A DNA stretch of 64,000 nucleotides from Chromatiaceae bacterium (lineage in GTDB: Bacteria; Pseudomonadota; Gammaproteobacteria; Chromatiales; Chromatiaceae): contig JADKCI010000001.1 in the NCBI GenBank assembly GCA_016714645.1, forward strand, positions 35,581 to 99,580, given 5' to 3'. The notes below the pieces were generated by a model. That model was not told the origin of the DNA and did no database searches. It saw only the letters and a list, made by a program, of their open reading frames with translations. Shown piece after piece: positions 5,862-43,368 of the stretch (position 1 is the first letter of the stretch; each line of letters starts with the position of its first letter). The translations under genes were made by a program, and so were the position numbers.

Positions 5862-6238
5862 CCCACAAGCTATCCCGCGGTCCTCTTTTCTCTCGGCTGT
5901 ATTGCGCCACTTTCGCGGCGGCGCCGACAGGCGATGCCAAGGCCACGCCCATCGTGCCCAACAATAAGGCCTTTGCGGAGAACGTGGTGGCCGAGGGCGG
6001 CGCCGCCGACGGCAACCCGAAACTCTACCGGGTCAGCACTGGCCACGGCGGCCTCTTCTGCGAGGCCTGCCATGGCACCAACCTGACGGGCACCGTGCTG
6101 TCGCGCACCGCCGATGACCGTACCGTGCGCTGCAAGACTACCCAAGGCAGTCTGCCCGAGTGCAAGGCGGGTCAGACGACGGCGGTCATCCCGAAGGGTA
6201 CCCCCGTAGGTTGCGGCATGTATCACCGTCAGAAATGA
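5862..6238 (+). pseudogene. C-terminal fragment of a c-type cytochrome, 5'-truncated by the IS21 relic
   Basis: The reading frame continues from the IS end without a credible start. It contains one heme-binding CxxCH (GGLFCEACHG) and is followed by a strong terminator. Confidence 0.4.
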
Positions 6239-6293
6239 GCGTCTAAGCCACGCAACAAGCTGCCCGGGACGGCAGCCGATGGACCAACCTTTA

Positions 6294-6318
6294 GGCGGCA
6301 CCTGTGCCGCCTTTTTTT
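6294..6318 (+). terminator. rho-independent terminator
   Basis: Stem GGCGGCA, loop cctg, stem TGCCGCC, followed by TTTTTTT. Confidence 0.65.
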
Positions 6319-6463
6319 CGTCTGCGTCAGCTCTCCCTATGGCCCGAACAGGTACTGGAGGCTGGTCATGGATCGGTTAAATCGGACCTGGAAATACTCC
6401 GGACTTCCGACTGAGCACCTAATAGCTCAGAATCAGCCCTTCGCCATTGCAGAAAGGGCAACA

Positions 6464-7354
6464 ATGAACCGTCTCGACGCCATGACCACCTTTGTGCGAG
6501 TCGCGGAATTGGGCAGTTTCGCGGCCGCCGCCAGCCGGCTGGGGGTGGCGCGTTCCGTGATCACGCGCCAGATCGCCGCCCTGGAGGAGCATCTGGGCAT
6601 CAAGCTGATGGTGCGCACGACGCGGCGCCTGACCCTGACGGCGGGCGGGGCCGCCTACCTGGAGAAGTGCCGGGAGATCCTCGACCTGGTCGAATCGGCC
6701 GAGGCGGACGTGATGGCGGACAGCCTGACCCCGCGCGGCCACTTGCACATCGGCGTGCCCCTGAGCTTTGGGCTGAAGAAGCTGGTGCCGTTACTGCTGG
6801 AGTTTTCCCAGACCTATCCGGCCATTACCCTGGCGACGGATTTCACCGACAGCCAACAGAATCTGGTGGAGGAAGGCAAGGACCTGCTGGTGCGCATCAC
6901 CGCCCGTCTGGAGCCGGGAGACATCGCCCGCAAGCTGGGGGCTTCCCGGCTCCAGGTCATCGCTACCCCGGCCTATCTGGCCCGCCATGGCCAGCCACGG
7001 CATCCCGCCGAACTCGCTGGCCATGCCCTGATCGGCTACACCCACCGCGGGGTCGTGCAGCCCTGGCCCTTCCGGGTCGAGGGCGAGGTGGAAACCTTCT
7101 ACCTGCCGTTCAAGCTCCAGGCTAACAACGGCGAGGCCCTGGCCGAGGCGGCGGTGCGGGACCTGGGGATCACCATGGTCCCGGACTTCGTCGCGGAGGA
7201 CTATCTCCGGGACCGCGGCATGGTGACCCTGCTCGAAGACTTCGCGCCGCCCGATCTGGGCATCTATGCCCTGCTCCCGAGCAATCGCTACATGCCCCAC
7301 CGGGTGCGGGCCTTGATCGAGTTTCTTGCGGGGCGGATGAAGTGTCCTGGCTAA
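6464..7354 (+). CDS. LysR-family transcriptional regulator
   Basis: ORF 6368-7354; the likely start is ATG 6464 (MNRLDAMTTFVRVAELGSFAAAASRLGVARSVITRQIAALEEHLGIKLMVRTTRRL). Confidence 0.85.
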   Translation: MNRLDAMTTFVRVAELGSFAAAASRLGVARSVITRQIAALEEHLGIKLMVRTTRRLTLTAGGAAYLEKCREILDLVESAEADVMADSLTPRGHLHIGVPLSFGLKKLVPLLLEFSQTYPAITLATDFTDSQQNLVEEGKDLLVRITARLEPGDIARKLGASRLQVIATPAYLARHGQPRHPAELAGHALIGYTHRGVVQPWPFRVEGEVETFYLPFKLQANNGEALAEAAVRDLGITMVPDFVAEDYLRDRGMVTLLEDFAPPDLGIYALLPSNRYMPHRVRALIEFLAGRMKCPG

Positions 7355-7382
7355 TGCGGCGCGGTGGCTGTCAGTCGAGCGC

Positions 7383-7418
7383 AAAAAAATGCCCGCCGGC
7401 TTGGCGGGCAATTATTTT
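7383..7418. terminator. bidirectional rho-independent terminator between convergent genes
   Basis: AAAAAAA, then stem TGCCCGCC, loop ggctt, stem GGCGGGCA, then ATTATTTT. There is a T-run after the hairpin on both strands. Confidence 0.6.
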
Positions 7419-7592
7419 CCTGACAATTGACAGGTCGGAATGGCAAACGCCGCCATAAAGGATCTCGATTTGACATCGTCTGGACCCGGTTGCCGACGCT
7501 CAATCTCCAGGGGAGCCATGGGAACGTCAGCGTTTTACGCACCAAATGCTTTAACAGTATTCATATAAGGAAAACGCCATAAAGTTAAATGC

Positions 7593-8207
7593 TTAATTCT
7601 CTTTAGGCCAGGATGGAATCTTCCAGTCCATTGCCAGCGCCAAGAGCCTTAATCCGGTCGAGGTTCCCGCGCCTGCCAGGAGGGAGAACCAGGATGCCGC
7701 GCCGGCGGAATCCAGACCCACCAGTACCCAGCAACCGAGGAAAGCGCAGAGAGCATAAGGCCGGTGATCGTGAAAGACCACTGGGATTTCGTTACACAGA
7801 ACATCGCGCAGCACGCCGCCAAACACCCCCGTCACCACGCCCAACAACACCACAACAATAATAGGCATCTCGGCGGCCAGGGCAAATGCCGCGCCCGAGG
7901 CGGCAAAGAGACCGAGTCCTATAGCATCCGTAGCCTGCATGAGGCGGTCGGCCCAACGATGACGCATTAAACCAAGTAAGGGCGGCCCGGCCAGGGTCAG
8001 TCCCAAGACCAGCCAGACATATTCCTGATGCTGCACCCAGGAGAGGGGGCGGCGATCCAGCAACAGATCCCGCAGGGTCCCGCCGCCGAAGGCAGTCACG
8101 AAGGCTACCGTGAAGACCCCGACAACATCCATCCGCTTGCGAACAGCCTCGATCAAGCCGGAGACGGCAAAGGCACAGATGGCGGCAATTTCGATGATGG
8201 CTAGCAC
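7593..8207 (-). CDS. UPF0126 / trimeric intracellular cation channel (TRIC)-family membrane protein
   Basis: 204 aa with two internal repeats each carrying the glycine motif (FGGGTLRDLLL and FGGVLRDVL). It is multi-TM. Confidence 0.8.
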   Translation of the reverse strand: MLAIIEIAAICAFAVSGLIEAVRKRMDVVGVFTVAFVTAFGGGTLRDLLLDRRPLSWVQHQEYVWLVLGLTLAGPPLLGLMRHRWADRLMQATDAIGLGLFAASGAAFALAAEMPIIVVVLLGVVTGVFGGVLRDVLCNEIPVVFHDHRPYALCAFLGCWVLVGLDSAGAASWFSLLAGAGTSTGLRLLALAMDWKIPSWPKEN

Positions 8208-29068: not shown

Positions 29069-29662
29069 ATGCCGGACCCCGTCCCACCCGGACCAGTCGC
29101 CGAGGCGGTCGCACAGGCCATGGCCCCCGTTGTGCCGCCCCAGGTCGTCGAGCACCTTGACAGCCTCGCGGTCAACTACGACCTCCTGGACTTTTTATTC
29201 GGCGGCGCGGGCCTCATGGCCGTCCTTTTCTTTCATGGCCTCTGCATCGCGTTCGTCTACCCCTGGTTCATGCAGCGCAGCCGTGACATGCTGCACCGGC
29301 GGACCTATTGGCGGGTGGAAATGCTGTTTCTTTTCAGCATGTTTTTACTCATGATGACCCACCTGGGCGAAATCACCCTCTGGGCCATCCTCGTCTTCCA
29401 ACTGGGCCTGGTGGACACCCTCCGTGAAGCCATCACCTTCTGCGGCAGTACCTATACCACCGTCGGCTACAACAGCGATCTGATGCCAGAAGGTTGGAAA
29501 GTGATGACCATGATCATCGCCCTGTCCGGCATGTTCTCCTTTGCCTGGACCACGGGCATCATGATGCTGATGCTCAAGCCCTTCCATGCCGCCCAATACG
29601 CCCGCATCACCGGCCGGGACCCGCAAAACGCCCCCTTCTCGGCGGACCAACCCAAGAACTAG
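29069..29662 (+). CDS. potassium-channel-like pore protein (Ion_trans_2 type)
   Basis: 197 aa. Hydrophobic helices flank a pore loop with selectivity-filter sequence TYTTVGYN. Confidence 0.7.
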   Translation: MPDPVPPGPVAEAVAQAMAPVVPPQVVEHLDSLAVNYDLLDFLFGGAGLMAVLFFHGLCIAFVYPWFMQRSRDMLHRRTYWRVEMLFLFSMFLLMMTHLGEITLWAILVFQLGLVDTLREAITFCGSTYTTVGYNSDLMPEGWKVMTMIIALSGMFSFAWTTGIMMLMLKPFHAAQYARITGRDPQNAPFSADQPKN

Positions 29663-29664
29663 CT

Positions 29665-30716
29665 TTCAAGCCCCGTATGATTATATACCGACACGAAGTG
29701 ATCCGTTATTAGGGCAACGACTGACCGGAGACCGGCGAACCATGAATCTGAACCTGCATAAAAATGCGCGGACCACGCCCGCGATTCGCCAGGAACTGCG
29801 CGAATCCACCAAGTCAGAGCGCGAACTGGCCCGCGAGTACCACCTGAATCGCGCCACGGTGCGTAAATGGCGGCAGCGCGAAACCGGCGAAGATGCCTCA
29901 CATCGTCCCCATCGCCTCCATGCGACCCTGACGCCGGCCCAAGAGCGGGTTGTCGTCGCGTTACGCACCACCTTGTTCCTCTCCTTGGATGACTTGCTGG
30001 CGGTGACCCGCGAGTTCCTCAATCCCGCCGTCTCGCGTTCAGGCATGGATCGCTGCCTGCGGCGGCATGGCGTCTCCAATCTCCAAGCCCTGATTCCCCA
30101 GCCGGAAGACGAGGAGCAACCAAAAGAAAACCTTTAAGGATGATGTGCCTGGATTCATTCACGCCGATATCAAGGCTCTTCCGCCCCTGCCAGACGAGAC
30201 CGCGCATCGGTACCTGTGCGTGGCCATTGATCGCGCCTCCCGCTGGATTTACGTGGAAATCTGGGGCGAAAAGACGGCGAACAATGCCGCCGAATTTCTC
30301 CAGCGGCTCGCCGCCACAGCGCCCTTCAAGGTCCAAAAGGTGTTGACCGATAACGACAACGCGTTTACCGATCGCTGTTGCGCCGCCGGCGAACGCGATC
30401 CCACCGGGCGTCATCGCTTTGATCGCACCTGCGATACCCACGGCATCGACCACCGGTTGATCAAGCCCCGTCATCCCCAGGCTAACGGCATGGTCGAACG
30501 CTTCAATGGCCGCATCAGCGAGGTGCTGGCCACCACGCACTACGATGCGGCCGCCACCCTAGAAGAGACCCTGACACGCTATGTGCGATTGTATAATCAC
30601 CAGATCCCGCAGAAAGCGTTAGGACACCTCTCGCCCGCGCAAGCGCTGAGGGGATTGGCAGGAGAAACGCCCAGAATTGTTCAAGAATTAAGGTATAGAA
30701 TCTCACGGTTCTTGAC
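29665..30716 (+). mobile_element. IS481-family insertion sequence, decayed copy 1
   Basis: Collinear with the intact copy at 42320-43368. The ends are (T)TCAAGCCCCGTATGATTATATACC and GGTATAGAATCTCACGGTTCTTGAC (imperfect inverted repeats). It begins 3 nt after the channel gene stop. Confidence 0.8.
29742..30690 (+). pseudogene. IS481-family transposase, inactivated by two single-base insertions
   Basis: Relative to copy 2 there is an extra A in CCAAAAGAAAACC (about 30121-30126), giving a stop at 30135-30137. There is also an extra G in GAGGGGATT near 30650. The track ORF 30145-31227 is a read-through artefact. Confidence 0.8.
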
Positions 30717-31512: not shown

Positions 31513-32973
31513 GTCAACCCAAAGTAGAAATGTCCCCTTCTGTCCAAAATAGAGATGTCCCCTGTTAGCGGCTCGGCTCGGCTAGGGAGGGGGTAGAACC
31601 GGGGGGTACGCCGGCTGGGCGGGCCAGACGGCAGGAGCCCGGAGGGCGACGGGCGTCTGGCCCGCCCAGCCGGCGGCGTGTGGTCGTGCGGGGTCAGGGG
31701 GCGGCGGATGAGGTGGCGGTGCGGGCGGCTGCCCTCGCCACGGCCTGGCGCCACGGGTGATCGAGGGCCGGCTTGGCACGCTGCCGTTGTTGCTTGTCAA
31801 GAGCGCCATCGACCCGCTCGTTGAGGGTCTTCTCGTCCGCGACCGGCGGCGGTTGCTCCCCCTTGCGGTAGGTGGTGTAAGGCCGCTCGCGGCCCTCCCG
31901 AGCAGCACGACCTCCCCCGTCGGCTAGGGCGCAGACAGTCACCTTAGCCCCGCGTAGGCGGTATCCCGGTCCAGGGTGTTGCAGCTGATAGGCGACGTTG
32001 CGGTACTGCGCGGTGAGGTTCTTGGACAGGGTCCGCTCCTCCTGCTCCGAGAGCAGCAGGTCCAGTTCCCGCGGGCGATGCACGAGGGGACGATGGGCGT
32101 CCTCTCCTGAACTGGGGGCTACTGCGAAGCGCCGGTTGAAGTCGGCCATGAACTCCGGCAGGTAGACGTTGGCGCTCTCCAGATCGTTAATGCCGCGCAG
32201 ACGCAACTCCTTGACCAGCCGGTCTTGGAGGGTCTGGTTGGCCCGCTCTACGCGCCCCTTGGCCTGCGGGGTGCGGGCGTGGATCGCTTCGATCTCAAGT
32301 CCGGTGAGGGCGCGTCCGAACTGGGTGGTGGTGGCGCCGTTGGCGGGCTCCACCTGGGTGATGCGGAAGAGGCTATGGCGGTCGGAGTAGAACGCTGCCG
32401 GCCGCCCGTACTGCTCCAGATGCCACCGTAGCACTTGCATGTAGACTGCGGTGGTTTCGCTGGGGGCAAACCACAACTGCACCAGGCGCCCGCTGGCGTC
32501 GTCGATGAAAACGATCAGGGTACAGCGCGGGCCGCGCCCCTCAAACCCGTCGTGGGGTGAGCCGTCGATCTGGATCAGCTCGCCGAAGCGCCCTCGCCGC
32601 TCGCGTAGCTGATGTGCCCGCGCGGCCTTGCGCCGCTTGGGTCGCCACCGCCCCCCGCAGGGCGCGAATCGCCTCGCGTAGCGGCTCCTTGAGCCGTCGG
32701 TTCGACGGCTCCCCGATGCGCCGGGAGACCAGTCCCGCGGCCCCCTGCGCCCGGTAGGCCGCCACCAGACGCTTCACTTGCCGCGTCGTGAGTCCCATTT
32801 GCCGCCCGGCCTCCGCCTGTGTCAGCCGCCGGTCCGTGACCGCCTCGACGACCTTCAGGCGGTGTAGCGCTCGCTTCGTCAACTCGATCATCTCCTCTGG
32901 CATCGCCCCCCCCGTTAACCAAAAGGGGACATTTCTAAACTGCACAAAGGGGACATTACTACTTTGGGCTAAC
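31513..32973 (-). mobile_element. IS1202/ISNCY-like insertion sequence, decayed, with 17-bp flanking direct repeats
   Basis: The terminal inverted repeats are GTCAACCCAAAGTAGAAATGTCCCC (31513-31537) and GGGGACATTACTACTTTGGGCTAAC (32949-32973), with a second subterminal AATGTCCCC box at each end. The flanking direct repeat AATAAGTCTTTAGCACT occurs at 31496-31512 and 32975-32991. Confidence 0.7.
31694..32903 (-). pseudogene. rve-domain (DDE) transposase of the IS1202/ISNCY type, frameshifted and internally deleted
   Basis: The N-terminal HTH part MPEEMIELTKRALHRLKVVEAVTDRRLTQAEAGRQMGLTTRQVKRLVAAYRAQGAAGLVSRRIGEPSNRRL starts from ATG 32903. The frame is lost near the C-run at about 32650. The catalytic part (ELIQIDGSPHDGFEGRG...FYSDRHSLF...TPQAKGRVERANQTLQDRL) lies in another frame down to 31694. 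The linker is much shorter than expected. Confidence 0.75.
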
Positions 32974-33120
32974 AAATAAGTCTTTAGCACTTGCCAGGCC
33001 ATAAGCATTACCAGATCATGGGTCTAAGGTACTGAAGACTTTCTGTGACTGACTTAAGCACCAATGGAAGACTGCGACACGACTTCGGACTTTTCTGCAA
33101 CCCAAAGGCGGATCAAGACC

Positions 33121-35955
33121 ATGCCCAAGCCATTTCACCAAATCACCCTCGACCAGTTCGCCGAGCTGCTCGAAAAATTCCCATTCACTCGCGCCATCGA
33201 GTCCGTGCACATGCACCACACCTGGCGGCCCAATCGCAGTCAGTACCGGGGCCTGTCCACGATCGAGGGCATGTGGACCTTTCATACCCAGACCAACGGT
33301 TGGTCGGATATCGCGCAGCACATTTCCATCGCGCCGGACGGGAGCATCTGGACCGGACGCAATTGGAACCAGCCGCCTGCCAGCGCCTCGGGCTTTAATG
33401 GCAACCGCACCGCCGGGCCGTTTATGTTCGAGATCATCGGGGATTTCGATGTCGGCAAGGATCCCTTCGACGGCCCGCAGAAACACACGGTCCTGTCCGT
33501 CATCGCCCTCGTGCAAAGGCACTTCAAGCTGAAGCCGGACACGCTCCGCTTCCACAACCGCATGTCCAGCAAGACCTGCCCCGGCAGTGGCGTGGATTAC
33601 GAGACGATACTCAAGGAGGTCGCCGAGATCCGCGCCGAGATCGACGCCCAGGCGGCGCCGCGCGCCGCCCCCCGGAACTTCCCGTTCAACGACAGCGCCC
33701 GCGCGATCTTTCGGGTCATCGATACGTTGCGTACCACCGTCGCGACGAACGATGTCGATGCCGAGGGTTGCCTCCACGACTCGACGAGCGAGGCGGCGTT
33801 TTCCCGCAGCACCGTCCCCGCTCCGGCGGGTCATGGCGCGCGGGGTGGCGGCGAGTTGCTCACACCCGAGGCGCTCCACCAGCTACAGCCTCACGTCATC
33901 AATCTGAACCTCGGACGCTTGTCGTCGGAGGGACTCTTCAAGACGCGCGAGGCGGATGTGGACGCGATCTTCGAGGAGCATCTGCCGACGTGGGCGGCGC
34001 AGCGGGGTGGGAAGATTCCGATCGTCTTTTACGCGCACGGCGGGCTGACCTCGGAGGAAAGCGGGCTACTCACCGCGGTCGAGCAGGTCGAGTGGTGGAA
34101 GGCAAACGGCGCCTACCCGATTCACTTCGTTTGGGAGACGGGCTTGCTCGAAACGCTCGGCCAGCTCATCGCGCCCGGGCGCCGACGCGACATCGATTTC
34201 GCCGCGCCCAGTGATTTCCTGATCGAGACGGCCGCCCGCACCCTCGGGGGCGTGAAGATCTGGTCCGGGATGAAGGTCAGCGCCGAGCGGGCGTCGGACG
34301 CAAACGGCGGCGCGCGCTACGCCGCGCGCAAGCTCAAGGCATTCTGTGACGCATACAAAGATCGCGTCGAGCTGCACGCGGTTGGTCATAGCGCAGGCTC
34401 GATCTTTCACGCCTACTTTGTCCCCGCTGCGCTCGATGAGGGCGCCCCGAATTTCCGTAGCTTGCACTTCCTCGCACCGGCCGTCCGGGTCGATACCTTC
34501 GAGCAGCAATTGCTGAAGAGGATCGGCAAAGACAAGGGCGTCGATCACCTCAGCGTCTTCACCATGGCACGCGCCTTCGAAGAGGATGACAACTGCTTCT
34601 CGGTCTACCGCAAGTCGCTCCTCTATCTCATTTACTACGGGCTGGAGCCGGACCGCAAGACCCCGATCCTCGGCCTCGAAGAATCCATCCGCGACAACGC
34701 CAGGCTGAAGCGGCTCTTCGACCTCGACCGCAAGGGCAACGCGGCCGGGGAAGTCATCTGGTCCGTGTCGAAAGACACCACGGGACGCTCGGCGACGACC
34801 TCGCGCACCCACGGCGGCTTCAACAATGACGCGCCGACCATGCAAAGCGTCGCGCAGCGCATCCTGGACAAGGAGGTCACGCCCTTTACGGGTACGGAAG
34901 AGCGCGGGCTCGGCCTGATCGACTCGCTCAGCCATCTCGACCCCGCGCTGGCCGAATACGTTCGGCCGTCCACGACCTCCCCGCAAGCGCCAACGTCCCT
35001 CACGCCGACCGCCGCCCCCTCCGCGGGCGGCGGCGGCCGGCGCGCCCTGTGCGTCGGGATCGATCGCTATCCCACGGCCCCGCTCGAGGGCTGCGCGAAC
35101 GATGCCCGCGCCTGGCGCGAGACCTTCCGCGCGCTCGGCTTCGACACCCCGATCCTCCTTATCGACGAACAGGCCACCCGCAGCGCGATCATGCGCGAAC
35201 TCAGCGACCTGATCCGTTCGAGCCGGGCGGGTGATGTCCTCGCCTTCCAGTTCGCCGGCCACGGCACCCAGCTTCCCGATCTCAACGGCGACGAAGCGGG
35301 GGGCGACTCGCCGGGGCTGGACGAGGCGCTCTGCCCGGTGGACTTCGACCGCGGGCGCTTCGTAATCGACGACGACCTCGCCGCCCTCTTCAACACGATC
35401 CCGGACGGCGTCGGCGTCACCGTCTTCACGGACTGCTGCCACTCCGGGACGATCACGCGGTTCGCCATCGGCACGCCATCGGCCACGACGACTGGCGGCG
35501 CCGTAAAGAAACGCTTCGTCACGGCCACGCCGGAAATGAAGGCGGCGCACGCGGCCTTCCGCGCAACGCTCGACGGCAGCCGGGCCTCGACCTCGCGCGG
35601 GGTCTACGATCAGGCGCGCGAAGTGCTCTTTTGCGCCTGCCGCTCGCAGGAGGTGGCGCTCGAAAGCAACGGTCACGGCCACTTCACCGTACAGGCCACG
35701 CGCGTTCTCGCCACCGGAATCGACGGCCTGACCAATGCCGATTTCCAGACCCGCGTGATCAGCGCCTTTGGGCCGAATCCCAGCCAGAACCCGGAACTCC
35801 ACTGCACCCCCCACTTGCGAGGCCGCTTGCTCCTCGCACCCGTCTCCTCCCCCGCGGGCGGACGCGCCATCGCCAGCCAGCCGGGCAGCCCCGGCGACTC
35901 CCGCGAGGATGTCGCACGCCTCCTCGAAGACACAGCTCGCCTCGTGCGCGGTTAG
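33121..35955 (+). CDS. three-domain cytosolic hydrolase fusion: PGRP/AmpD-type amidase_2 + GxSxG alpha/beta hydrolase + caspase-like (peptidase C14-type) protease
   Basis: ORF 33064-35955; the preferred start is ATG 33121 (MPKPFHQ). The amidase_2 motifs are HMHHTW, NGWSDIAQHISIAPDGSIWTGRNW and FHNRMSSKTCPG. The hydrolase has IPIVFYAHGG and a nucleophile elbow VGHSAGS (Ser codon 34390-34392). The caspase region reads RRALCVGIDRYP...GCANDA, with His in FQFAGHGTQ (35260-35262) and Cys in FTDCCHSGT (35437-35439). There is no signal peptide or TM segment. Confidence 0.85.
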   Translation: MPKPFHQITLDQFAELLEKFPFTRAIESVHMHHTWRPNRSQYRGLSTIEGMWTFHTQTNGWSDIAQHISIAPDGSIWTGRNWNQPPASASGFNGNRTAGPFMFEIIGDFDVGKDPFDGPQKHTVLSVIALVQRHFKLKPDTLRFHNRMSSKTCPGSGVDYETILKEVAEIRAEIDAQAAPRAAPRNFPFNDSARAIFRVIDTLRTTVATNDVDAEGCLHDSTSEAAFSRSTVPAPAGHGARGGGELLTPEALHQLQPHVINLNLGRLSSEGLFKTREADVDAIFEEHLPTWAAQRGGKIPIVFYAHGGLTSEESGLLTAVEQVEWWKANGAYPIHFVWETGLLETLGQLIAPGRRRDIDFAAPSDFLIETAARTLGGVKIWSGMKVSAERASDANGGARYAARKLKAFCDAYKDRVELHAVGHSAGSIFHAYFVPAALDEGAPNFRSLHFLAPAVRVDTFEQQLLKRIGKDKGVDHLSVFTMARAFEEDDNCFSVYRKSLLYLIYYGLEPDRKTPILGLEESIRDNARLKRLFDLDRKGNAAGEVIWSVSKDTTGRSATTSRTHGGFNNDAPTMQSVAQRILDKEVTPFTGTEERGLGLIDSLSHLDPALAEYVRPSTTSPQAPTSLTPTAAPSAGGGGRRALCVGIDRYPTAPLEGCANDARAWRETFRALGFDTPILLIDEQATRSAIMRELSDLIRSSRAGDVLAFQFAGHGTQLPDLNGDEAGGDSPGLDEALCPVDFDRGRFVIDDDLAALFNTIPDGVGVTVFTDCCHSGTITRFAIGTPSATTTGGAVKKRFVTATPEMKAAHAAFRATLDGSRASTSRGVYDQAREVLFCACRSQEVALESNGHGHFTVQATRVLATGIDGLTNADFQTRVISAFGPNPSQNPELHCTPHLRGRLLLAPVSSPAGGRAIASQPGSPGDSREDVARLLEDTARLVRG

Positions 35956-35959
35956 GGCC

Positions 35960-37810
35960 ATGAAAGCGGAGAATCCAGGCGCGGCGGAAGGGCGCGACTT
36001 CACCATCGACGAGGGCGTCCAACGCGCCGCGCAAGGCCGGCCCTACGAGCGCAAGCCGGACGATCCGATGCATCGTCCACTGCGGATCTTCAGCCTGGAC
36101 CCCGCCGTCTCCCAACGGGACGGCGCGGTTGCCGAGGTCAAGGCGCCCTACGAACCGCTCCAGCCTGGACCCATCGGCGCGGTTTTCGCAGTGGACGATG
36201 TGGACGCGGCCCAAGGGACCCACTGGGGTCGTGCCGACCTCGACGACCGCACCGTCCTGCTCCGCAACGGCCACACCCCATCGACGACGAACCCGCTGTT
36301 CCACCAGCAGATGGTCTATGTCGTTTGCGCGACGGTCTACCAAACCTTCCGCAAGGCGCTCGGACGCCATGTGAGTTGGGATTTCGATGCGCGCCCGGGG
36401 GAAGAGGGACAACCGACGCGGTTACGCATCCTGCCGCATGCCTTTGTCGGTCAGAACGCGTTCTACGACCGCACGACCGGGGAACTGCTCTTTGGTTACT
36501 TCTCCGCCACCGACAAACCCCACGGCCGCACTCCGCCGGGCGGCGTCGTCTACACCTGCCTCTCGCACGACATCATTGCGCACGAGGTCACGCATGCCCT
36601 GCTCGACGGTCTGCGGGCGCACTTCTGCCAGCCGACCGGTCCCGACGTCCTCGGCTTCCACGAAGGCTTTGCCGATCTCGTCGCGGTCTTTCAGCATTTC
36701 AGTCACCGCGAGGTGGTGCAAGCGGCCATCCGCCGGTCGGAGGGTCACCTCGAAGACGCGACCCTGCTGACCGGGATCGCTCATCAATTTTCGCAGAGCC
36801 GCGGCTCGATCCAGCCCTTGCGCACGGCTTTCAAGCACATGGCCGATGCAAAGCATGAACCGAAACGATACGATCCGACGCAGGGGGCGCATGAAATCGG
36901 TGAGGTGTTGGTCCAGGCGGTCTTCGAGGCGTGGATGTCGATCTTCAACCGCAAGGTCGAGCGTTATGTCCGCCTCGCAACCGCCGGCGCCGGCCGTCTT
37001 CCTCCGAGCCAGGCGCCGGCCGATCTACGAGACATCTTCGCAGAGGAGGCCAGCAAGCTGGCGGAGCAATTCCTCGGCATCTGCATCCGCGCGATTGACT
37101 ACTGCCCGCCGGTGGACATCGCCCTCGGCGAGTATCTCCGGGCGCTGATCACCGCGGATCACGACCTCGTGCCCGACGACCCGTGGGGTTATCGCGAGGC
37201 GCTCATCGACGCCTTTCGCGTACGCGGCATCTACCCGCCGCAGTTGAGCAGCCTTTCGGAGGAGAGCCTGCGCTGGCAGGCGCCGGCGCTTTCCGTCGCG
37301 AGCATCCCGGAGTTGAGCTTCGCGCGGCTACAGTTTGCAGGCGATCCCGCGGCCCCGGCCAGTCCGGAGGAGTTACTCCGCCAGGCGCGCGCCCTCGGCG
37401 CGGTGGTCGGTCGCCCTGAGCACCTCGCACACTTCGGTCTGGCGCGCAGCAACGACCCCGAGCTCGGGGAAGACACCGTCGACCTGCCGCGGGTGCAATC
37501 GATCCGCAGTTCCCGTCGCGTCGGCCCGGATGGCCAGATCGTCTTCGACCTCGTGGCCGAAGTCACGCAACGCCGCACCGTCCGCGATCCGCGCGGCGCC
37601 TTCGACACCTTCGGCGGCGCAACCGTGATCATCGGCCCCAAGGGCGAATTCCGTTACGTCATCGCGAAAAACGTCCTCAACGAGGATCGGCTCACCAGCC
37701 AGCGGGAATTCATCCACGGCGCGGGAAGGCCGTTTTGCGAGCTGCGAGGGGGCGCGCTAGCGCCGATCAGCAACGCATTTAAGCTTCTCCACGAGCCTAA
37801 AACGCCATGA
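35960..37810 (+). CDS. cytosolic thermolysin-like (gluzincin, HExxH...ExxxD) zinc metalloprotease with an uncharacterised roughly 250-aa C-terminal region
   Basis: ATG 35960 lies 4 nt after the upstream stop and in frame with track ORF 35768-37810. HEVTH is at 36581-36595. The third ligand is in GFHEGFAD (Glu 36662-36664), 23 residues after the second His (20 in thermolysin). There is no signal peptide. Confidence 0.8.
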   Translation: MKAENPGAAEGRDFTIDEGVQRAAQGRPYERKPDDPMHRPLRIFSLDPAVSQRDGAVAEVKAPYEPLQPGPIGAVFAVDDVDAAQGTHWGRADLDDRTVLLRNGHTPSTTNPLFHQQMVYVVCATVYQTFRKALGRHVSWDFDARPGEEGQPTRLRILPHAFVGQNAFYDRTTGELLFGYFSATDKPHGRTPPGGVVYTCLSHDIIAHEVTHALLDGLRAHFCQPTGPDVLGFHEGFADLVAVFQHFSHREVVQAAIRRSEGHLEDATLLTGIAHQFSQSRGSIQPLRTAFKHMADAKHEPKRYDPTQGAHEIGEVLVQAVFEAWMSIFNRKVERYVRLATAGAGRLPPSQAPADLRDIFAEEASKLAEQFLGICIRAIDYCPPVDIALGEYLRALITADHDLVPDDPWGYREALIDAFRVRGIYPPQLSSLSEESLRWQAPALSVASIPELSFARLQFAGDPAAPASPEELLRQARALGAVVGRPEHLAHFGLARSNDPELGEDTVDLPRVQSIRSSRRVGPDGQIVFDLVAEVTQRRTVRDPRGAFDTFGGATVIIGPKGEFRYVIAKNVLNEDRLTSQREFIHGAGRPFCELRGGALAPISNAFKLLHEPKTP

Positions 37811-37923
37811 GCGCCGCCACCGAGCTTATCGTGCCGGCGAGAGAACGCTGGTCTCACACCGGGTTCGCAATCGAGCAGGGCGCAGGTTGGACGAAGCCGC
37901 TACCGCGGCAGATGAGGACTGCC
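37807..37923 (+). pseudogene. 5' remnant of a third operon gene, truncated by the IS91-like end
   Basis: ATG 37807 overlaps the TGA of the protease gene (ATGA). The product reads MSAATELIVPARERWSHTGFAIEQGAGWTKPLPRQMRTA, then runs into the GGGATA repeats and terminal box of IS91-like relic C and stops at 37971. At 54 codons it falls below the ORF-track cutoff. Confidence 0.4.
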
Positions 37924-38775
37924 TATAGGGATAGGGATAGGGATAGGAAGTTCAACCGCACCGGCGGCTGAAGCAGCGCTAACGTAGCATCGCCGGGAGG
38001 GGCGTGGCAAGGCCCGGCAAGCCCCGCGAGGGAGCTGACTGGCAGGAACGGGGGCGAGGTAGCCCTCTCGGAGGGGGCCGAGTGGGCGTGAGGGGTGGTC
38101 TGCCGGCGGCCTGGGTGCAGGCAGCGGCGCGTCGCTGGCCGGTGGCGAGGACGGAAGGAGGCTACCACTGCACTTCCTGGTTGAAGACGTACTCGGGTGA
38201 GGGTTGCGCCAGGGCGTCCCAGTCGGGTACGGCCTCGACCGGTGGGTCGTCCCAGGCCGGCGGTCCGCGGGCCGGGCTGATGCGTGGCGGCTCGGGGGGT
38301 TCGCCGATGTGGTTGAGTATCCGCCGCAGCGGGGCCGCTTCGGTAACGAAGGCGATGATGCGCATGTCGGCACCGCAGTTGGGGCAGGCCAAGGGCAGCG
38401 ACGCGAACAGGCGTGCGAGCAGCATGGCCCACAGGTAGTGCGCCGGGGAGCGGTGACTGGGTGGCGCGGCAGCGGGCGGTGAAGGTGGCGGCGCAGCCGC
38501 CACAGGCGGTGGGTGAGTCAGGTCGGGGTCCGCATCGCGCCCGTAGGCGGTGGCGGCCAGGCGCAGTGGCGCATTGGGTGCGAGCACCCCATGGTAGCGA
38601 TGGCGGTGCAGCCGCGGCGGGGGGATCAGGGCCGCGAGGTGGTCGATGAACTCCAGCGGGATGAGGGACAGCGCGGTGCGCCCGTCGCGCTGGGGCCTCG
38701 GCAGGCGATAGACGATCCGCTCATCGTTGACCTGCTCGAGGCGCTCAAGGGCGAAGGGCGGACGGGCACAGCATG
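37924..38775 (-). mobile_element. IS91-family-like element, 3' half relic (copy C)
   Basis: The terminal box GATAGGAAGTTCAACCGCAC (37942-37961) is preceded by (AGGGAT)3. About 200 nt of tail follows, then the C-terminal half of the transposase. The 5' half is missing. Confidence 0.65.
38162..38770 (-). pseudogene. IS91-family (Y2 HUH) transposase, C-terminal roughly 200 aa only
   Basis: The open frame reads PPFALERLEQVNDERIVYRLPRPQRDGRTALSLIPLEFIDHLAALIPPPRLHRHRYHGVLAPNAPLR...CPNCGADMRIIAFVTEAAPLRRILNHIGEPPEPPRISPARGPPAWDD...PEYVFNQEVQW*. An upstream in-frame stop lies at about 38778. Confidence 0.7.
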
Positions 38776-38975
38776 CTTAGCGAGGGACGTTCCACGCACC
38801 CTTTGTGACCGGGAATCATCAAGCGTTGGTGGTTTCAACATTCGTGGGGGTAGCGCTCGCTGTCGGCGTGGCGCTAGACAGATCGGTCTCGCCGCACTTG
38901 CCGCATCCGACGTCCTGGAAATTTCCGCCATGCCCTGCTAATTTGCACATAACCAGTGTAAGCGGGGCCTGTGAT

Positions 38976-39197
38976 ATGAGTATCACCCTTTCCATCGATG
39001 AGAAGACGCTGTCGGCAGCGCGCAAGGTCGCGGCTGCTCGCGGGCAGAGCCTCAATCAACTGATTCGCGACGAGCTTGCACGGCTGACGGGCGTGGAGCA
39101 CCACCGCGCGGATTGGCAGGAGCTCGAATCGCTGAGCGGGACAGGTCATTCCCGAGGCTGGCACTTCGACCGCGACGAGCTGCATGAAAGAACGTAG
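38976..39197 (+). CDS. vapB: type II antitoxin (VapB-like)
   Basis: 73 aa from ATG 38976 (MSITLSIDEKTLSAARKVAAARGQSLNQLIRDELARLTG). It overlaps the PIN toxin gene by 14 nt. Confidence 0.65.
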   Translation: MSITLSIDEKTLSAARKVAAARGQSLNQLIRDELARLTGVEHHRADWQELESLSGTGHSRGWHFDRDELHERT

Positions 39198-39609
39198 CTT
39201 CCTGGACACCAACGTTCTGGTTTACACCGACGACGCCGACGCACCGGCCAAGCAGGCAACCAGCTTGTCGCTGTTGCGCGCGGGATGGGCAACTGGAAAC
39301 GGCGTGCTGTCCACGCAGGTGTTGCAGGAGTACTTCGCCGCGGTCACCCGCAAGCTGGGCGTCGATGCGGCCGTCGCGCGCCGCAAGGTCGAGCTCTTTG
39401 GCCGCTTGGAGATGCTGAGCATTGGCCACGACGACATCCTGCGCGCCATTGATCTCCACCGCCTGCACGGCTTTTCGATTTGGGATGCCTTGATCGTCAC
39501 CATGGCGCTCAAGGCCCAATGGCGGGTGCTGTATTCCGAAGACATGCAGGACGGACGCGTCATCGACGGTCTGCGAATTGCCAATCCATTCAAGCCCGAG
39601 AGCCGGTAG
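39184..39609 (+). CDS. vapC: PIN-domain toxin VapC
   Basis: 141 aa. The acidic PIN residues appear in FLDTNVLVY, LQEYF, IWDALIV and YSEDMQDG. Confidence 0.85.
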   Translation: MKERSFLDTNVLVYTDDADAPAKQATSLSLLRAGWATGNGVLSTQVLQEYFAAVTRKLGVDAAVARRKVELFGRLEMLSIGHDDILRAIDLHRLHGFSIWDALIVTMALKAQWRVLYSEDMQDGRVIDGLRIANPFKPESR

Positions 39610-39682: not shown

Positions 39683-39969
39683 CCTCTGGGCCATCCTCGT
39701 CTTTCAACTGGACTTGGTGGACACCCTTCGTCAAGCCATCACCTTCTGCGGCAGTACCTATACCACCGTCGGCTACAACAGCGATCTGATGCCCGAAGGC
39801 TGGAAAGTGATGACCATGATCATCGCCCTGTCCGGCATGTTCTCCTTCGCCTGGACCACGGGCATCATGATGATGATGCTCAGGCCCTTCCATGCCGCCC
39901 AATACGCCCGCATCACCGGCCGGGACCCACAAAACGCCCCCTTCTCGGCGGACCAACCCAAGAATTAGC
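39683..39969 (+). pseudogene. 5'-truncated, diverged duplicate of the K+-channel-like gene 3' end
   Basis: Collinear with 29377-29663, including the TTVGY filter and the stop codon. I count about 12 mismatches by eye. Upstream of 39683 the sequence is unrelated to the intact gene. Confidence 0.8.
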
Positions 39970-40047
39970 CACCCGCCCCAGGCCGATCCCAAACACGGCG
40001 GGATAGATGGGTCGGTGGCACTCCTCGCTGGGCTGGAAAAGGGTTAG

Positions 40048-42141
40048 CCTATCTTTGTCACCCCAACCCATAGCATCTTTTACATACAATTGGTTACGAT
40101 GATCATCCGGCGGCGTTGGTCACTACATGTGGGATCGGCGGGGCGTTCGGGTCAATGAGAGTCTTCTCCGTCTTGCCCGGCAGGTGGGGCAGACCGAGGG
40201 CGTTGTAGAGGTCCTGCTGGTGGGGTTCGGGGCGGGTGGCTTTGCGGATGTGGTAGATCTGACCGTCGTCGCGATGGAGGATGACGGTCACCCGCTGTTG
40301 GCCGTCGAGTTGGTTGCGCAGGCTCTCCCAGCTCAGGTGAATGCCCTGAGCCTTGAGTTGCAGACGCACGCTGTGGACCAGGTGGTAGGCCAATACCGAG
40401 AGGAACAGATGGCCGTCGACCCGTGCGCTCTGGTGGTGATAGACCGGGCGCAGGCCCAGCTCCGACTTCAACGAGCGGAACACCGCCTCCAGATCGGTGA
40501 GCATGGTGTAGGTATCCCACAGGGTGCGCTCATCCCAGTCGGCCTGGTTGGTACGCAGGCAATAGACCCCGGGGAGGGTGTCCTCGGTCGGTATGATGCG
40601 CGTCCACACCAGGGCCTTGGCATTGCCGCTGGCTGTGTCTTTCTCCAGGTGGATGTCGTAGAAGCGGATCACCCTGGAGTAACGCTGGCGCAGCCGCCCG
40701 ATGCGGATCTGGACCTGGTCGTAGCCCTTGACGCGACGGGGTATATTGAGCCCCTCGGCCAGGTATTTTAGGTCCGCCTCCAGGCGGTTGGAGAAGCGTT
40801 GTTCGATGCCCCGCTCCTTGGCCTCGCGGCCGGTGGAATGACAGTACAGGCGTACCTCCCCGCTGGCCTCGTCAACCACGCGCTGGGCGCGAATGCGGGT
40901 CGCTCCCGCCTCGCGAATCAGGATCGCCTGCTCGGGATCGAACTCCTGGTGGCGCTCGCGGCTGACGACCAAATAGCGGTAGCCCTGGTCCTTGAGCCAG
41001 GTGAGGTTGGCTGCGGTGGCGATGCCGGCATCGAGCACCACCGTCGGGGCCACCGCAGCGGGGGCGAGCGCCAGGCGCTCGAGCATCTGCTCCAGGGTCT
41101 TGGGCTCGCTGATGTTGCCTGCAAAGACCTTGCTGCGCTTGGGGAAGCCGCTGCCATCGAGCACCAGGGCCAGGGTCGCCAAGGGGCCATCGGAGCGCTG
41201 CTCCTTGGAGTGACCGTGCTTGGCCTTGGCATGGCCGCGCGCCGTGCCCTCGAAGAAGGTATTGGTCAGATCGTACAGGGTGATGGTCTCGGCCAGCGCG
41301 AACAGGTCGCGCTCCTGCTGGTAGAGAAAGCCCTCCAGCGTGGCGCGGTGCGCCAACAACCGGTCGCTCACCCGATACAACTGATTCAGGTCCAGGGCGG
41401 CGAAGTCGTAGTCCAGCAATTCCCCCAGACCGCTGCGCAGTTGCAGCCACTGGTGGGTTGCCAACTCGCTGCCCGGGCGCACCATGCGCCCGATGATGGC
41501 CCCGATGGCGGCGCCCAACTGGTGACGATTGAAGCCCAATTGCGCCAGCTTGACGTCCAACCCCAGCCGCCGCAACGCCTCCAGCGCCACCTGCTCGGCC
41601 CCGACACTGCGCGGGCGAACGACCTCCAGGCGCTCCAGGTCCACCCGCTGATAGTCGCACTGCGCGGCGGCCGCCTTCGCCGCCACCGTCGTGCCCCGGC
41701 GGCTGACCAGGCGGGCCGCACAGTCCCGCGCCAGCGCCTCCCACTGCGGATCCAACCCGTCGGCGATCAGATCCAATTGCCCCTGCACCAGGGCCTCGAT
41801 GCGCCCGGCCAATGGGCCCCACTGCGGGCGCGGCACCTCGAACTGGCGCCCGAGATTGAGCAGCGTGACCTGGCGCACCGACGTCGAAGTGCGCACCGAC
41901 TCTACCAGGCGGTAGGTGTAATAGGGCTCGCCGGTCTCGCGGCTCTTGATGGTGGTGCGACGAATATACATGGGCGCAGCTTAGCCCCTGCGCCGGACCC
42001 TGGCAAGGGTTATTAACAATATTATGGCACTACGCGGCGACGCGAATCGCTAAGCCATTGACCCGGTTTGGGCCACCCGCCTCGCCGCGGCGGAAAGGCG
42101 GGGGTGTTGGGCGGATGAGGGGGGTGGAATGACAAAGATGG
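40048..42141 (-). mobile_element. IS1634-family insertion sequence with target-site duplication
   Basis: The inverted ends are CCTATCTTTGTCACCCC (40048-) and GGGGTGGAATGACAAAGATGG (-42141). The direct repeat GGTTAG abuts both ends (40042-40047 and 42142-42147, within about 1 nt). Confidence 0.8.
40103..41971 (-). CDS. IS1634-family (IS4-superfamily DDE) transposase
   Basis: 622 aa. The N-terminus MYIRRTTIKSRETGEPYYTYRLVESVRTSTSVRQVTLLNLG is characteristic of IS1634-type transposases. The ORF is intact. Confidence 0.9.
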   Translation of the reverse strand: MYIRRTTIKSRETGEPYYTYRLVESVRTSTSVRQVTLLNLGRQFEVPRPQWGPLAGRIEALVQGQLDLIADGLDPQWEALARDCAARLVSRRGTTVAAKAAAAQCDYQRVDLERLEVVRPRSVGAEQVALEALRRLGLDVKLAQLGFNRHQLGAAIGAIIGRMVRPGSELATHQWLQLRSGLGELLDYDFAALDLNQLYRVSDRLLAHRATLEGFLYQQERDLFALAETITLYDLTNTFFEGTARGHAKAKHGHSKEQRSDGPLATLALVLDGSGFPKRSKVFAGNISEPKTLEQMLERLALAPAAVAPTVVLDAGIATAANLTWLKDQGYRYLVVSRERHQEFDPEQAILIREAGATRIRAQRVVDEASGEVRLYCHSTGREAKERGIEQRFSNRLEADLKYLAEGLNIPRRVKGYDQVQIRIGRLRQRYSRVIRFYDIHLEKDTASGNAKALVWTRIIPTEDTLPGVYCLRTNQADWDERTLWDTYTMLTDLEAVFRSLKSELGLRPVYHHQSARVDGHLFLSVLAYHLVHSVRLQLKAQGIHLSWESLRNQLDGQQRVTVILHRDDGQIYHIRKATRPEPHQQDLYNALGLPHLPGKTEKTLIDPNAPPIPHVVTNAAG

Positions 42142-42168
42142 GTTAGGACCAGGGCGGGCCTCACCCCT

Positions 42169-42252
42169 ATCGCGCCAATAGGAATGGCGCGAATCTTGAC
42201 TGATCGCGCCAATAAAGCTAGTTTTTGGCGCGTTAGGCGGTAATCGCGCCAA
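42169..42252. promoter_or_regulatory. operator-like array: five copies of TCGCGCCAA / TTGGCGCGA in alternating orientation
   Basis: Direct copies lie at 42169-78, 42203-12 and 42243-52; inverted copies lie at 42185-92 and 42225-32. They form TCGCGCCA-N7-TGGCGCGA and CGCGCCAA-N12-TTGGCGCG palindromes. The array sits just upstream of GGAG + ATG 42267 of an ORF (MPKKLPEDLTERIETESQ) that is cut by IS481 copy 2. Confidence 0.4.
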
Positions 42253-42319
42253 ACAGCCTTGGAGCCATGCCCAAAAAACTCCCCGAAGACCTAACCGAAC
42301 GAATCGAAACCGAATCGCA

Positions 42320-43368
42320 GTCAAGCCCCGTATGGTTATATACCGACACGAAGTTATCCGTTATTAGGGCAACGACTGACCGGAGACCGGCGAACCATGA
42401 ATCTGAACCTGCATAAAAATGCGCGGACCACGCCCGCGATTCGCCAGGAACTGCGCGAATCCACCAAGTCAGAGCGCGAACTGGCCCGCGAGTACCACCT
42501 GAATCGCGCCACGGTGCGTAAATGGCGGCAGCGCGAAACCGGCGAAGATGCCTCACATCGTCCCCATCACCTGCATGCGACCCTGACGCCGGCCCAAGAG
42601 CGGGTTGTCGTCGAGTTACGCACCACCTTGTTCCTCTCCTTGGATGACTTGCTGGCGGTGACCCGCGAGTTCCTCAATCCCGCCGTCTCGCGTTCAGGCA
42701 TGGATCGCTGCCTGCGGCGGCATGGCGTCTCCAATCTCCAAGCCCTGATTCCCCAGCCGGAAGACGAGGAGCAACCAAAGAAAACCTTTAAGGATGATGT
42801 GCCTGGATTCATTCACGCCGATATCAAGGCTCTTCCGCCCCTGCCAGACGAGACCGCGCATCGGTACCTGTGCGTGGCCATTGATCGCGCCTCCCGCTGG
42901 ATTTACGTGGAAATCTGGGGCGAAAAGACGGCGAACAATGCCGCCGAATTTCTCCAGCGGCTCGCCGCCACAGCGCCCTTCAAGGTCCAAAAGGTGTTGA
43001 CCGATAACGACAACGCGTTTACCGATCGCTGTTGCGCCGCCGGCGAACGCGATCCCACCGGGCGTCATCGCTTTGATCGCACCTGCGATACCCACGGCAT
43101 CGACCACCGGTTGATCAAGCCCCGTCATCCCCAGGCTAACGGCATGGTCGAACGCTTCAATGGCCGCATCAGCGAGGTGCTGGCGACCACGCACTTCGAT
43201 GCGGCCGCCAACCTGGAAGAGGCCCTGACCCGCTATGTGCGATTTTATAATTATCAGATCCAGCAGAAAGCGTTAGGACACCTCTCGCCAGTGCAAGCGC
43301 TGAAGGATTGGCAAGAGAAACGCCCAGAATTATTCAAGAAATAAGGTATAGAATCTCACGGGGTTGAC
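42320..43368 (+). mobile_element. IS481-family insertion sequence, intact copy 2
   Basis: The inverted ends are GTCAAGCCCCGTATGGTTATATACC and GGTATAGAATCTCACGGGGTTGAC. It contains a single intact transposase ORF. I found no flanking direct repeat. Confidence 0.85.
42397..43344 (+). CDS. IS481-family DDE transposase
   Basis: 315 aa. The product reads MNLNLHKNARTTPAIRQELRESTKSERELAREYHLNRATVRKWRQRE..., with an rve core (HADIKAL...VAIDRASRW...TDNDNAFT...PRHPQANGMVERFNG). Confidence 0.9.
   Translation: MNLNLHKNARTTPAIRQELRESTKSERELAREYHLNRATVRKWRQRETGEDASHRPHHLHATLTPAQERVVVELRTTLFLSLDDLLAVTREFLNPAVSRSGMDRCLRRHGVSNLQALIPQPEDEEQPKKTFKDDVPGFIHADIKALPPLPDETAHRYLCVAIDRASRWIYVEIWGEKTANNAAEFLQRLAATAPFKVQKVLTDNDNAFTDRCCAAGERDPTGRHRFDRTCDTHGIDHRLIKPRHPQANGMVERFNGRISEVLATTHFDAAANLEEALTRYVRFYNYQIQQKALGHLSPVQALKDWQEKRPELFKK

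Follow-up and report, generated by a model that had tools for sequence, protein, structure and literature searches.

What does a bacterium do with a single protein in which a peptidoglycan amidase-type domain, a lipase-like hydrolase and a caspase are joined? The question is raised by one gene in a 64,000-nt stretch of DNA from a Chromatiaceae bacterium (GCA_016714645.1, contig JADKCI010000001.1, positions 35,581-99,580, forward strand), which we refer to as the window. By its sequence the product of this tri-domain gene is a soluble protein of the cytoplasm in which three hydrolytic enzymes with strictly conserved active-site residues are fused, and the gene is predicted to be co-transcribed with a gene for a gluzincin-type metallopeptidase. 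The domain anatomy is secure; as to function, we infer that the two-gene cassette is a protease-gated module for cell death or conflict, self-contained and of the abortive-infection type, a reading to which we assign a probability of roughly 45%. The gene and its parts are located in the window as follows.

33121-35955, plus strand: tri-domain gene, 944 amino acids (aa) and a TAG stop, product identical to GenBank MBK8636773.1
33190-33585, plus strand: Amidase_2 domain of the T7-lysozyme/PGRP type, aa 24-155, from Pfam
33616-33852, plus strand: linker 1, aa 166-244, poorly conserved, 48% P/S/T/A/G
33853-34890, plus strand: alpha/beta-hydrolase domain, lipase/esterase-like, aa 245-590, from model, fold and conservation
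34891-35031, plus strand: linker 2, aa 591-637, poorly conserved, rich in Pro/Ser/Thr/Ala
35032-35835, plus strand: metacaspase-type Peptidase_C14 domain, aa 638-905, from Pfam, PDB alignment and conservation

The open reading frame (ORF) containing the gene spans 33064..35955 of the plus strand in the ORF listing. Its second Met at 33121 matches the start of the homologs, which show an MPxPF... N-terminus with a nearly invariant M1, and yields the 944-aa GenBank protein, annotated as 'caspase family protein' of a Chromatiaceae metagenome-assembled genome. A first-pass annotation of the stretch, made by a model from the letters alone, had chosen the same start. The longer version beginning at 33064 (963 aa) was rejected, as it is absent from public collections and homologs begin at the second Met. 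All motifs and codons quoted in the first-pass annotation were found in place, including Ser424 (34390-34392), His714 (35260-35262) and Cys773 (35437-35439), and its division of the protein into an amidase, a hydrolase with a Ser elbow and a C14 caspase is borne out by Pfam, model and conservation. The Pfam scan matched Amidase_2 and Peptidase_C14 and left about 350 residues between them without a match, while NCBIfam and PADLOC gave only weak generic caspase matches. Neither a signal peptide nor a transmembrane segment, lipobox or hydrophobic N-terminus was found in the protein (max KD19 1.03), which counts against export, an outcome that by the first-pass annotation would refute its reading. 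Conservation was determined in 195 unique relatives and in a second, more divergent set of 150 cluster representatives. The Zn triad, Ser424, Glu487, His564, His714 and Cys773 are 100% conserved in the 195 relatives, well beyond chance expectation, and the catalytic residues are mostly retained in the 150 representatives. Together with alignments to T7 lysozyme and to MCA2 of T. brucei, this conservation places the proposed catalytic residues at homologous positions. An antisense ORF of 646 aa (34066-36006, minus strand) overlaps the gene; it is typical of high-GC DNA (67%) and is without support as a gene.

The protease on which the proposed module would depend is the C-terminal domain, with the following residues.

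35260-35262, plus strand: catalytic His714
35437-35439, plus strand: catalytic Cys773
35101-35103, plus strand: S1-pocket Asp661
35431-35433, plus strand: S1-pocket Asp771

Pfam matched Peptidase_C14 (PF00656) at aa 640-895 with an E value of 1.6e-24. In a PDB sequence search FQFAGHGTQ aligned with GHGTQ of MCA2, and the second Cys of DCCHSG, Cys773, aligned with the catalytic Cys that is mutated in the C213A and C213G structures of MCA2; the dyad which the first-pass annotation had described as intact is indeed so, and both residues are fully conserved. D661 and D771 align with Asp95 and Asp211 of MCA2, which we take to be S1-pocket residues. Likewise, D734, D750 and D751 align with three of four MCA2 Asp positions that presumably form the Ca2+ site, the fourth position being an invariant Arg780 in the family instead. 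Since the dyad, the S1-pocket Asp and these Ca2+-site Asp positions all align with MCA2 and are 100% conserved in the 195 relatives, the domain is a metacaspase-type protease with an acidic S1 pocket, presumably specific for Arg/Lys. Metacaspases of family C14B are endopeptidases with Arg/Lys specificity and not stem-peptide peptidases. The domain shares its His-Cys dyad, two S1 Asp and a contiguous p20-p10-like layout with type I metacaspases and bacterial caspase homologs (MCA2, yeast Mca1, Geobacter GSU0716 with structure 3bij), but differs in being embedded in a multi-enzyme fusion without a eukaryotic-type N-terminal prodomain.

The putative effector is the middle domain, for which the relevant residues are listed here.

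34036-34044, plus strand: HGG oxyanion motif
34390-34392, plus strand: Ser424 of the GHSAG elbow
34579-34581, plus strand: Glu487
34588-34590, plus strand: Asp490
34810-34812, plus strand: His564

At thresholds up to E = 10 this domain matched nothing in Pfam, NCBIfam or PADLOC, and aa ~245-590 matched no PDB sequence, whether searched singly or as a 60-sequence family profile. Its AlphaFold2 model, built on the family alignment, has a pLDDT of 90 and a pTM of 0.90. In a Foldseek comparison of the model with the PDB 49 of the 50 top matches were lipases, esterases or cutinases, among them esterases of the hormone-sensitive lipase (HSL) family, phospholipase A1, platelet-activating factor (PAF)-acetylhydrolase and cutinases. 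In the model IPIVFYAHGG ends a strand and carries the HGG oxyanion motif, VELHAVGH-S424-AGS forms a strand-Ser-helix elbow, Glu487 and Asp490 follow the next-but-one strand past the elbow, and His564 follows the last strand. H306-G-G, S424, E487, D490 and H564 vary little or not at all in the relatives and in the divergent representatives. The nucleophile elbow VGHSAGS and the candidate Asp and His in FEEDDN and SRTHGGF, all named in the first-pass annotation, are thus well placed and conserved. Sequence order and predicted secondary structure fit the canonical layout with a predicted triad of Ser424, His564 and Glu487 or Asp490, and by its model the middle domain is a very divergent, unnamed HSL-like family of alpha/beta-hydrolases.

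One segment of the hydrolase bears on how caspase and hydrolase might be functionally coupled.

34174-34206, plus strand: disordered loop, aa 352-362 (PGRRRDIDFAA), the sole internal disordered segment of the hydrolase model
34186-34188, plus strand: Arg356, followed by Asp357, candidate Arg-specific processing site

The loop is located in a helical insertion or cap between the fourth and fifth strands of the model; an insertion at this position is the usual site of a lid. Among 343 unique sequences of all architectures the loop is 13-33 residues long and contains Arg without exception (343/343), at a frequency of 15% compared with 7% over the whole domain. The last loop Arg stands 8±1 residues before an invariant Asp365 in 84% of the sequences, and the residue after it is Asp, Gly or Ala in 89%. 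A comparable arrangement has been studied in Lysobacter capsici, where the caspase-like protease LcCaspase activates a separate alpha/beta-hydrolase zymogen, LcHydrolase, by two cuts between R and G adjoining the lid and thereby causes cell death (Evans et al. 2025, PMC12642450). Both systems couple a caspase-fold Cys protease genetically to a lipase-like alpha/beta-hydrolase, and both are widespread and modular. LcHydrolase is cut after Arg near its lid; the present hydrolase has a positionally conserved Arg followed by D or G in a disordered cap loop. The present family differs in that hydrolase and caspase form one polypeptide, in an additional conserved gluzincin partner gene, and in an N-terminus that is Amidase_2 or another enzyme and not a sensor of the STAND/WD40 type. 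Whereas the function of the Lysobacter pair has been studied, the present family is known from sequence and models alone. By analogy the conserved loop Arg is a candidate cleavage site, and the parallel with LcHydrolase is suggestive only. With the protease linked to its putative effector by fusion, and with this core kept across architectures, the family represents a widespread, as yet uncharacterised form of the known protease-effector logic.

The second gene of the cassette had not been mentioned in the first-pass annotation.

35960-37810, plus strand: partner gene, 616 aa, ATG 4 nt past the TAG of the tri-domain gene, product identical to GenBank MBK8636774.1 ('peptidase M4')
36581-36595, plus strand: HExxH motif, His208 to His212
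36662-36664, plus strand: Glu235
36674-36676, plus strand: Asp239

In 66 of 78 evaluable loci a homolog of the partner directly follows the tri-domain gene in the same orientation, and in one further locus it is found at another position. A comparison of 80 loci for any other conserved gene showed only genus-level synteny in Polaromonas. H208, E209, H212, E235 and D239 are invariant in 47 partner sequences, and E235-x-x-x-D239 is located 22 residues past HExxH. We take HExxH...ExxxD to be the gluzincin signature, as in thermolysin and ACE. The AlphaFold model of the partner (pLDDT 85) shows a beta-rich subdomain ahead of the active-site helix. In this order of subdomain and helix, as in the invariant motifs and their spacing, the partner resembles thermolysin-like gluzincins (MEROPS M4 and relatives), from which it differs in being cytoplasmic and in about 400 extra residues of unassigned fold. 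The label 'peptidase M4', which NCBI gives to some members of the partner family, was not confirmed: there was no Pfam (M4 models included), NCBIfam or PADLOC match up to E = 10 and no PDB sequence match with the family profile, and whole-chain Foldseek against the PDB gave only noise (lipoxygenase and orange carotenoid protein, best E 0.046, probability < 0.1). No signal peptide, transmembrane segment or propeptide was found in the partner.

Taken as a protease-gated module, the cassette would work as follows. Some trigger would set off the caspase, possibly in a cascade with the metallopeptidase. The caspase would then cut at the conserved Arg in the cap loop of the hydrolase and/or in the flexible linkers. 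Cleavage would release an active lipase-like hydrolase, which would attack membrane or ester substrates, and would also free the amidase to act on cytoplasmic MurNAc-peptide substrates, that is, peptidoglycan precursors or anhydromuropeptides. As a result, the infected or stressed cell would die.

How widespread is such a cassette? A protein search with the tri-domain protein gave 1,615 matches. The top 120 of these are nearly all full-length with 48-91% identity and both Pfam domains; full-length protein clusters number more than 100. In a set of one genome per species (about 185,000 species) we found 440 relatives in at least 12 phyla. The best 80 of the 440 are full-length and span Verrucomicrobiota, Alpha-, Beta- and Gammaproteobacteria, Desulfobacterota, Acidobacteriota, Nitrospirota, Armatimonadota, Chloroflexota, Bacteroidota, Chlorobiota, Gemmatimonadota, Methylomirabilota and Binatia; cultured isolates among the relatives include Pseudomonas fluorescens, Polaromonas, Massilia, Nitrosomonas communis, Azospirillum, Hymenobacter and Achromobacter. 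The first-pass annotation had known of no other polypeptide combining the three domains. This claim does not hold in view of the full-length clusters, the 440 relatives, the GenBank entry and fusions described in 2012. In that survey, Asplund-Samuelsson et al. reported four proteins combining Amidase_2 and metacaspase, one of them with a GDSL lipase (PMC3501461). The same Pfam pair was found there in Polaromonas, Nitrosococcus, Desulfobacterium and Chitinophaga, and relatives from Polaromonas were recovered in our scan as well. The middle hydrolase, the metallopeptidase partner, the exchange of Tyr for Gln in the amidase described below and the modular N-terminus were not detected in the survey, which was made by sequence and without function tests. 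The architecture is therefore common, as the first-pass annotation had allowed it might prove to be, but it is not already characterised: searches of the literature for the architecture, under various names, turned up no functional study.

The 2012 survey also speculated that a related amidase-lipase-metacaspase fusion might be a 'highly destructive weapon' (PMC3501461), and the combination of predicted amidase, lipase-like and protease activities would suit a secreted or injected antibacterial or predatory toxin directed against the wall, membrane and proteins of a target cell. We consider this highly improbable, the least favored of the readings weighed here, since the signal peptide, transmembrane segment and lipobox looked for were not found, no conserved secretion-system or immunity gene lies nearby, the 616-aa metallopeptidase is the sole conserved neighbor, and the neighborhoods otherwise vary between loci.

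Searched exhaustively by itself, the middle domain gave 2,019 cluster representatives, of which the best 150 were used to count architectures. Amidase_2-hydrolase-C14 accounts for 65 of these 150 and hydrolase-C14 without a further domain for 41, and in another 16 hydrolase-C14 is preceded by a different N-terminal region, which Pfam identifies as DUF7379, a PGAP1/LCAT-like alpha/beta-hydrolase, or as CHAT together with Peptidase_C11 or DUF7363. On rhizobial megaplasmids a papain-like C1 peptidase is fused to the hydrolase module in place of the caspase. The gluzincin partner is also found downstream of a hydrolase-C14 gene and of a DUF7379-hydrolase-C14 gene. Because the core recurs with varied N-termini and the gluzincin follows these variants too, the constant unit is, as judged from sequence, the hydrolase joined to a Cys protease, usually together with the gluzincin, and Amidase_2 is an optional N-terminal module that is swapped with other degradative enzymes. 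Near tri-domain loci without a partner we found CHAT proteases, hydrolases of the LCAT/DUF676 type, Pepco and extra C14 genes.

Three further observations concern individual loci. On plasmids of Sinorhizobium (L143, 4164-6122) and Eleftheria (L144, 4035-5972) the hydrolase module, with 30-33% identity, makes up the C-terminal half of a 'C1 family peptidase', and these fusions are without a gluzincin partner. The homolog in Desulfopila sp. IMCC35006 (L003/L026) also has no partner; upstream of it, at 2317-7929, lie Pepco, CHAT-CHASE2, FecR-PASTA and a stand-alone C14, a dense protease-effector cluster that includes the peptidoglycan-binding PASTA domain. In Azospirillum canadense (L029, 6947-11971) the tri-domain frame is not closed by a stop and extends for about 700 further residues that match CHAT weakly; a gene for an LCAT-like alpha/beta-hydrolase comes next. 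The extended ORF may be a four-enzyme fusion, or a stop or frameshift may have been missed.

If Amidase_2 is optional, what is its role where it is present? Its active-site positions are listed here.

33214-33216, plus strand: Zn ligand His32
33553-33555, plus strand: Zn ligand His145
33577-33579, plus strand: Zn ligand Cys153
33571-33573, plus strand: Lys151
33316-33318, plus strand: Gln66, in place of Tyr46 of T7 lysozyme

Pfam Amidase_2 (PF01510) matched aa 24-155 with 34.6 bits against a cut-off of 26. We built a hidden Markov model (HMM) of the N-terminal domain of the family, to which T7 lysozyme (NC_001604 gene 3.5) aligned with E 5e-14, giving the equivalences H32 = His17, Q66 = Tyr46, H145 = His122, K151 = Lys128 and C153 = Cys130. 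The alignment confirms what the first-pass annotation had read from the motifs: the Zn site is kept, the H-x5-K-x-C spacing is that of His122/Lys128/Cys130, and the catalytic Tyr is replaced by Gln. None of the 195 relatives lacks H32, H145 or C153 at a covered position, and K151 is kept in 188 of 195. Gln occupies position 66 in 192 of 194 relatives, as it does in 66 of 74 more divergent representatives of 50% clusters, none of which has Tyr. Since Gln is so prevalent and Tyr never occurs in the divergent representatives, the sequences indicate that the exchange is an ancient, fixed trait of the family and not a lesion. A search of the PDB with the family profile returned PGRP-LB (E 2e-7) and T7 lysozyme (E 1e-6), with which the domain groups in sequence searches, whereas E. 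coli AmpD scored 0.0 against the family HMM and is too distant to be aligned; of the three comparisons that the first-pass annotation had proposed for the amidase, those with T7 lysozyme and PGRPs gave a match and that with AmpD gave no detectable alignment. The domain thus has the fold family, the His/His/Cys ligands and the catalytic Lys of T7 lysozyme and the catalytic PGRPs at homologous positions, but differs in the Gln throughout the tri-domain family and in belonging to a cytoplasmic protein that is fused to two other enzymes and is not encoded by a phage. In such enzymes the equivalent Tyr probably contacts Zn via a water, all amidase-active PGRPs retain the complete His/His/Cys/Tyr set, and about 10% of activity remains in the Y58F variant of the Ts2631 endolysin, a loss of about 10-fold (PMC4573324). 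The first-pass annotation had judged a standard lytic amidase the poorer fit. The domain is indeed not one, which agrees both with the missing signal peptide and transmembrane segment and with a Gln in place of a Tyr that is important in a validated Amidase_2 enzyme (PMC4573324).

The annotation had gone on to suggest binding, sensing or altered catalysis. In a PGRP-like form of this idea the Gln-variant domain would serve as a receptor for muropeptides in the cytosol, or as a slow 'enzymatic sensor', responding to wall damage or phage lysis products, and would license the metacaspase to act on the hydrolase and/or the metallopeptidase. The kinship with PGRPs and T7 lysozyme, the predicted cytoplasmic location, the family-wide loss of a Tyr needed for full activity in validated enzymes and the PASTA-domain neighbor at one locus without partner are in line with this, as is the position of Amidase_2 at the N-terminus of a protease-effector core, where sensors are usually found in such modules (PMC12642450). 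We nevertheless regard a sensor as unlikely. The Zn triad and Lys151 are invariant, which sets the family apart from non-catalytic PGRPs and leans against a pure sensor, the full His/His/Cys/Tyr set being kept only in amidase-active PGRPs (PMC4573324). Moreover, in sister architectures the place of Amidase_2 at the N-terminus is vacant or taken by degradative enzymes (DUF7379 hydrolase, CHAT, C11) and not by ligand-binding domains, and because partner and core occur without Amidase_2 the domain is not required for the system. Of the earlier suggestion the departure from standard lytic amidases therefore stands, and a pure sensor is disfavored. A more specific and distinctly more doubtful version would make the cassette a bacterial counterpart of the animal PGRP-to-caspase axis, in which the Zn-bound Gln-variant domain binds or slowly turns over cytosolic muropeptides set free by wall damage or phage attack and licenses an Arg-specific metacaspase, so that the cap loop is cut, the gluzincin is engaged and the cell commits suicide. 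If this were true, the cassette would act as a death switch that senses peptidoglycan on its own, and it would point to an old evolutionary connection of PGRP sensing with caspase signaling.

We also examined the genomic setting of the cassette, which in the window is flanked by housekeeping genes (metH, yhdP and a CitMHS transporter) and by the following elements.

29377-30422, strand not assigned: upstream copy of an insertion sequence (IS) with an rve integrase, repeated downstream of the cassette
31694-33008, minus strand: IS fragment with an HTH_28 ORF (32541-33008) and a weak rve_3 ORF (31694-32482), adjoining the 5' end of the tri-domain gene
38805-39609, plus strand: VapBC-like pair inside the IS-bracketed segment
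39683-39969 and 42321-43076 (span 39683-43076): second copy of this IS, downstream of the cassette, with 96-100% identity to the first
40103-41971: DDE_Tnp_1 transposase gene that splits the downstream IS copy

The two IS copies are in direct orientation and bracket the two-gene cassette, an arrangement that resembles a composite transposon of about 9-13 kb. In the VapBC-like pair a weak RHH/FitA-like antitoxin ORF (38805-39197) overlaps a PIN ORF (39184-39609, E 7.7e-10). Homologs with about 80% identity are found in Chthoniobacterales (Verrucomicrobiota), in Thiocapsa and Lamprocystis (Chromatiaceae) and in Accumulibacter (Betaproteobacteria) (L007, L008, L009, L011), the Accumulibacter copy being without a partner gene. 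Such identity across phyla implies recent inter-phylum transfer, and together with the direct IS copies, the IS fragment and the VapBC-like pair it indicates, at the level of sequence, that the cassette is horizontally mobile. Its distribution across phyla is patchy. A phage origin was rejected, as a scan of viral contigs gave only caspase-domain matches and no full-length relative. The native promoter region of the tri-domain gene may have been replaced by the IS fragment; promoter and terminator scans of the window gave background levels with a sole sigma-70-like match at 32991-33019, and an Rfam scan of the window gave no matches. The approximately 1 kb past the partner gene (37811-38800) holds only short ORFs on both strands, with no Pfam match, and may be coding, regulatory or a remnant of an IS.

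Mobility and distribution also bear on whether the protein could serve housekeeping catabolism of muropeptides or peptides, as a cytoplasmic multi-enzyme that combines an amidase like AmpD with an esterase and two peptidases and is used in wall recycling or in scavenging nutrients. AmpD, as annotated, is a precedent for a cytoplasmic Amidase_2, and the conservation of all active sites would fit. Against this, the domain aligns with T7 lysozyme and PGRP and not detectably with AmpD, the patchy distribution, with 440 relatives in a set of about 185,000 species, looks driven by horizontal gene transfer, the cassette in the window has IS flanks, CHAT, C11 and Pepco occur in sister architectures and neighborhoods, and metacaspases do not have the specificity, outlined above, of stem-peptide peptidases. 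We judge such a role very unlikely; like the secreted weapon it is less probable than either the protease-gated module or the sensor.

In summary, we favor the protease-gated module on account of the domain anatomy, the linkage to the partner gene, the modularity, the conflict-system neighbors, the mobility, the precedent of LcCaspase and LcHydrolase and the conserved loop Arg. Several points count against it. No recognizable sensor domain or trigger was found in the tri-domain family, the N-terminal modules being enzymes, and a peptidoglycan amidase has no obvious lethal target in the cytoplasm unless precursors are cleaved. The conserved loop Arg may have a structural role instead of marking a point of cleavage. 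The Foldseek scores of the middle domain are weak (best E 1.4e-3, TM-score ~0.3, probability up to 1.0), and the protease status of the partner is based on its motif and predicted topology. In PADLOC only the generic 'caspase' model matches the tri-domain protein, and most of the other window genes examined are housekeeping genes. What is new here is the gluzincin partner gene, the occurrence of the hydrolase-caspase core alone or with other N-terminal enzymes, and the positionally conserved loop Arg.

The gating of effectors by proteases is increasingly recognized as a major logic of bacterial immunity. The family would add a widespread form of such modules, present in 440 species-level genomes of at least 12 phyla, tractable isolates of Pseudomonas, Polaromonas, Massilia and Azospirillum included, in which a caspase is fused to a putative hydrolase effector and accompanied by a second, unclassified zinc protease and by swappable extra enzymes. 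It also exposes an alpha/beta-hydrolase family and a gluzincin-like family of about 620 aa that lie outside profile libraries. With the catalytic Tyr of Amidase_2/PGRP enzymes fixed as Gln, the family represents a natural experiment on this residue, and C773, S424, R356, Q66 and E209 of the partner are mutational targets that bear on the coupling of peptidoglycan chemistry to caspase-driven death.

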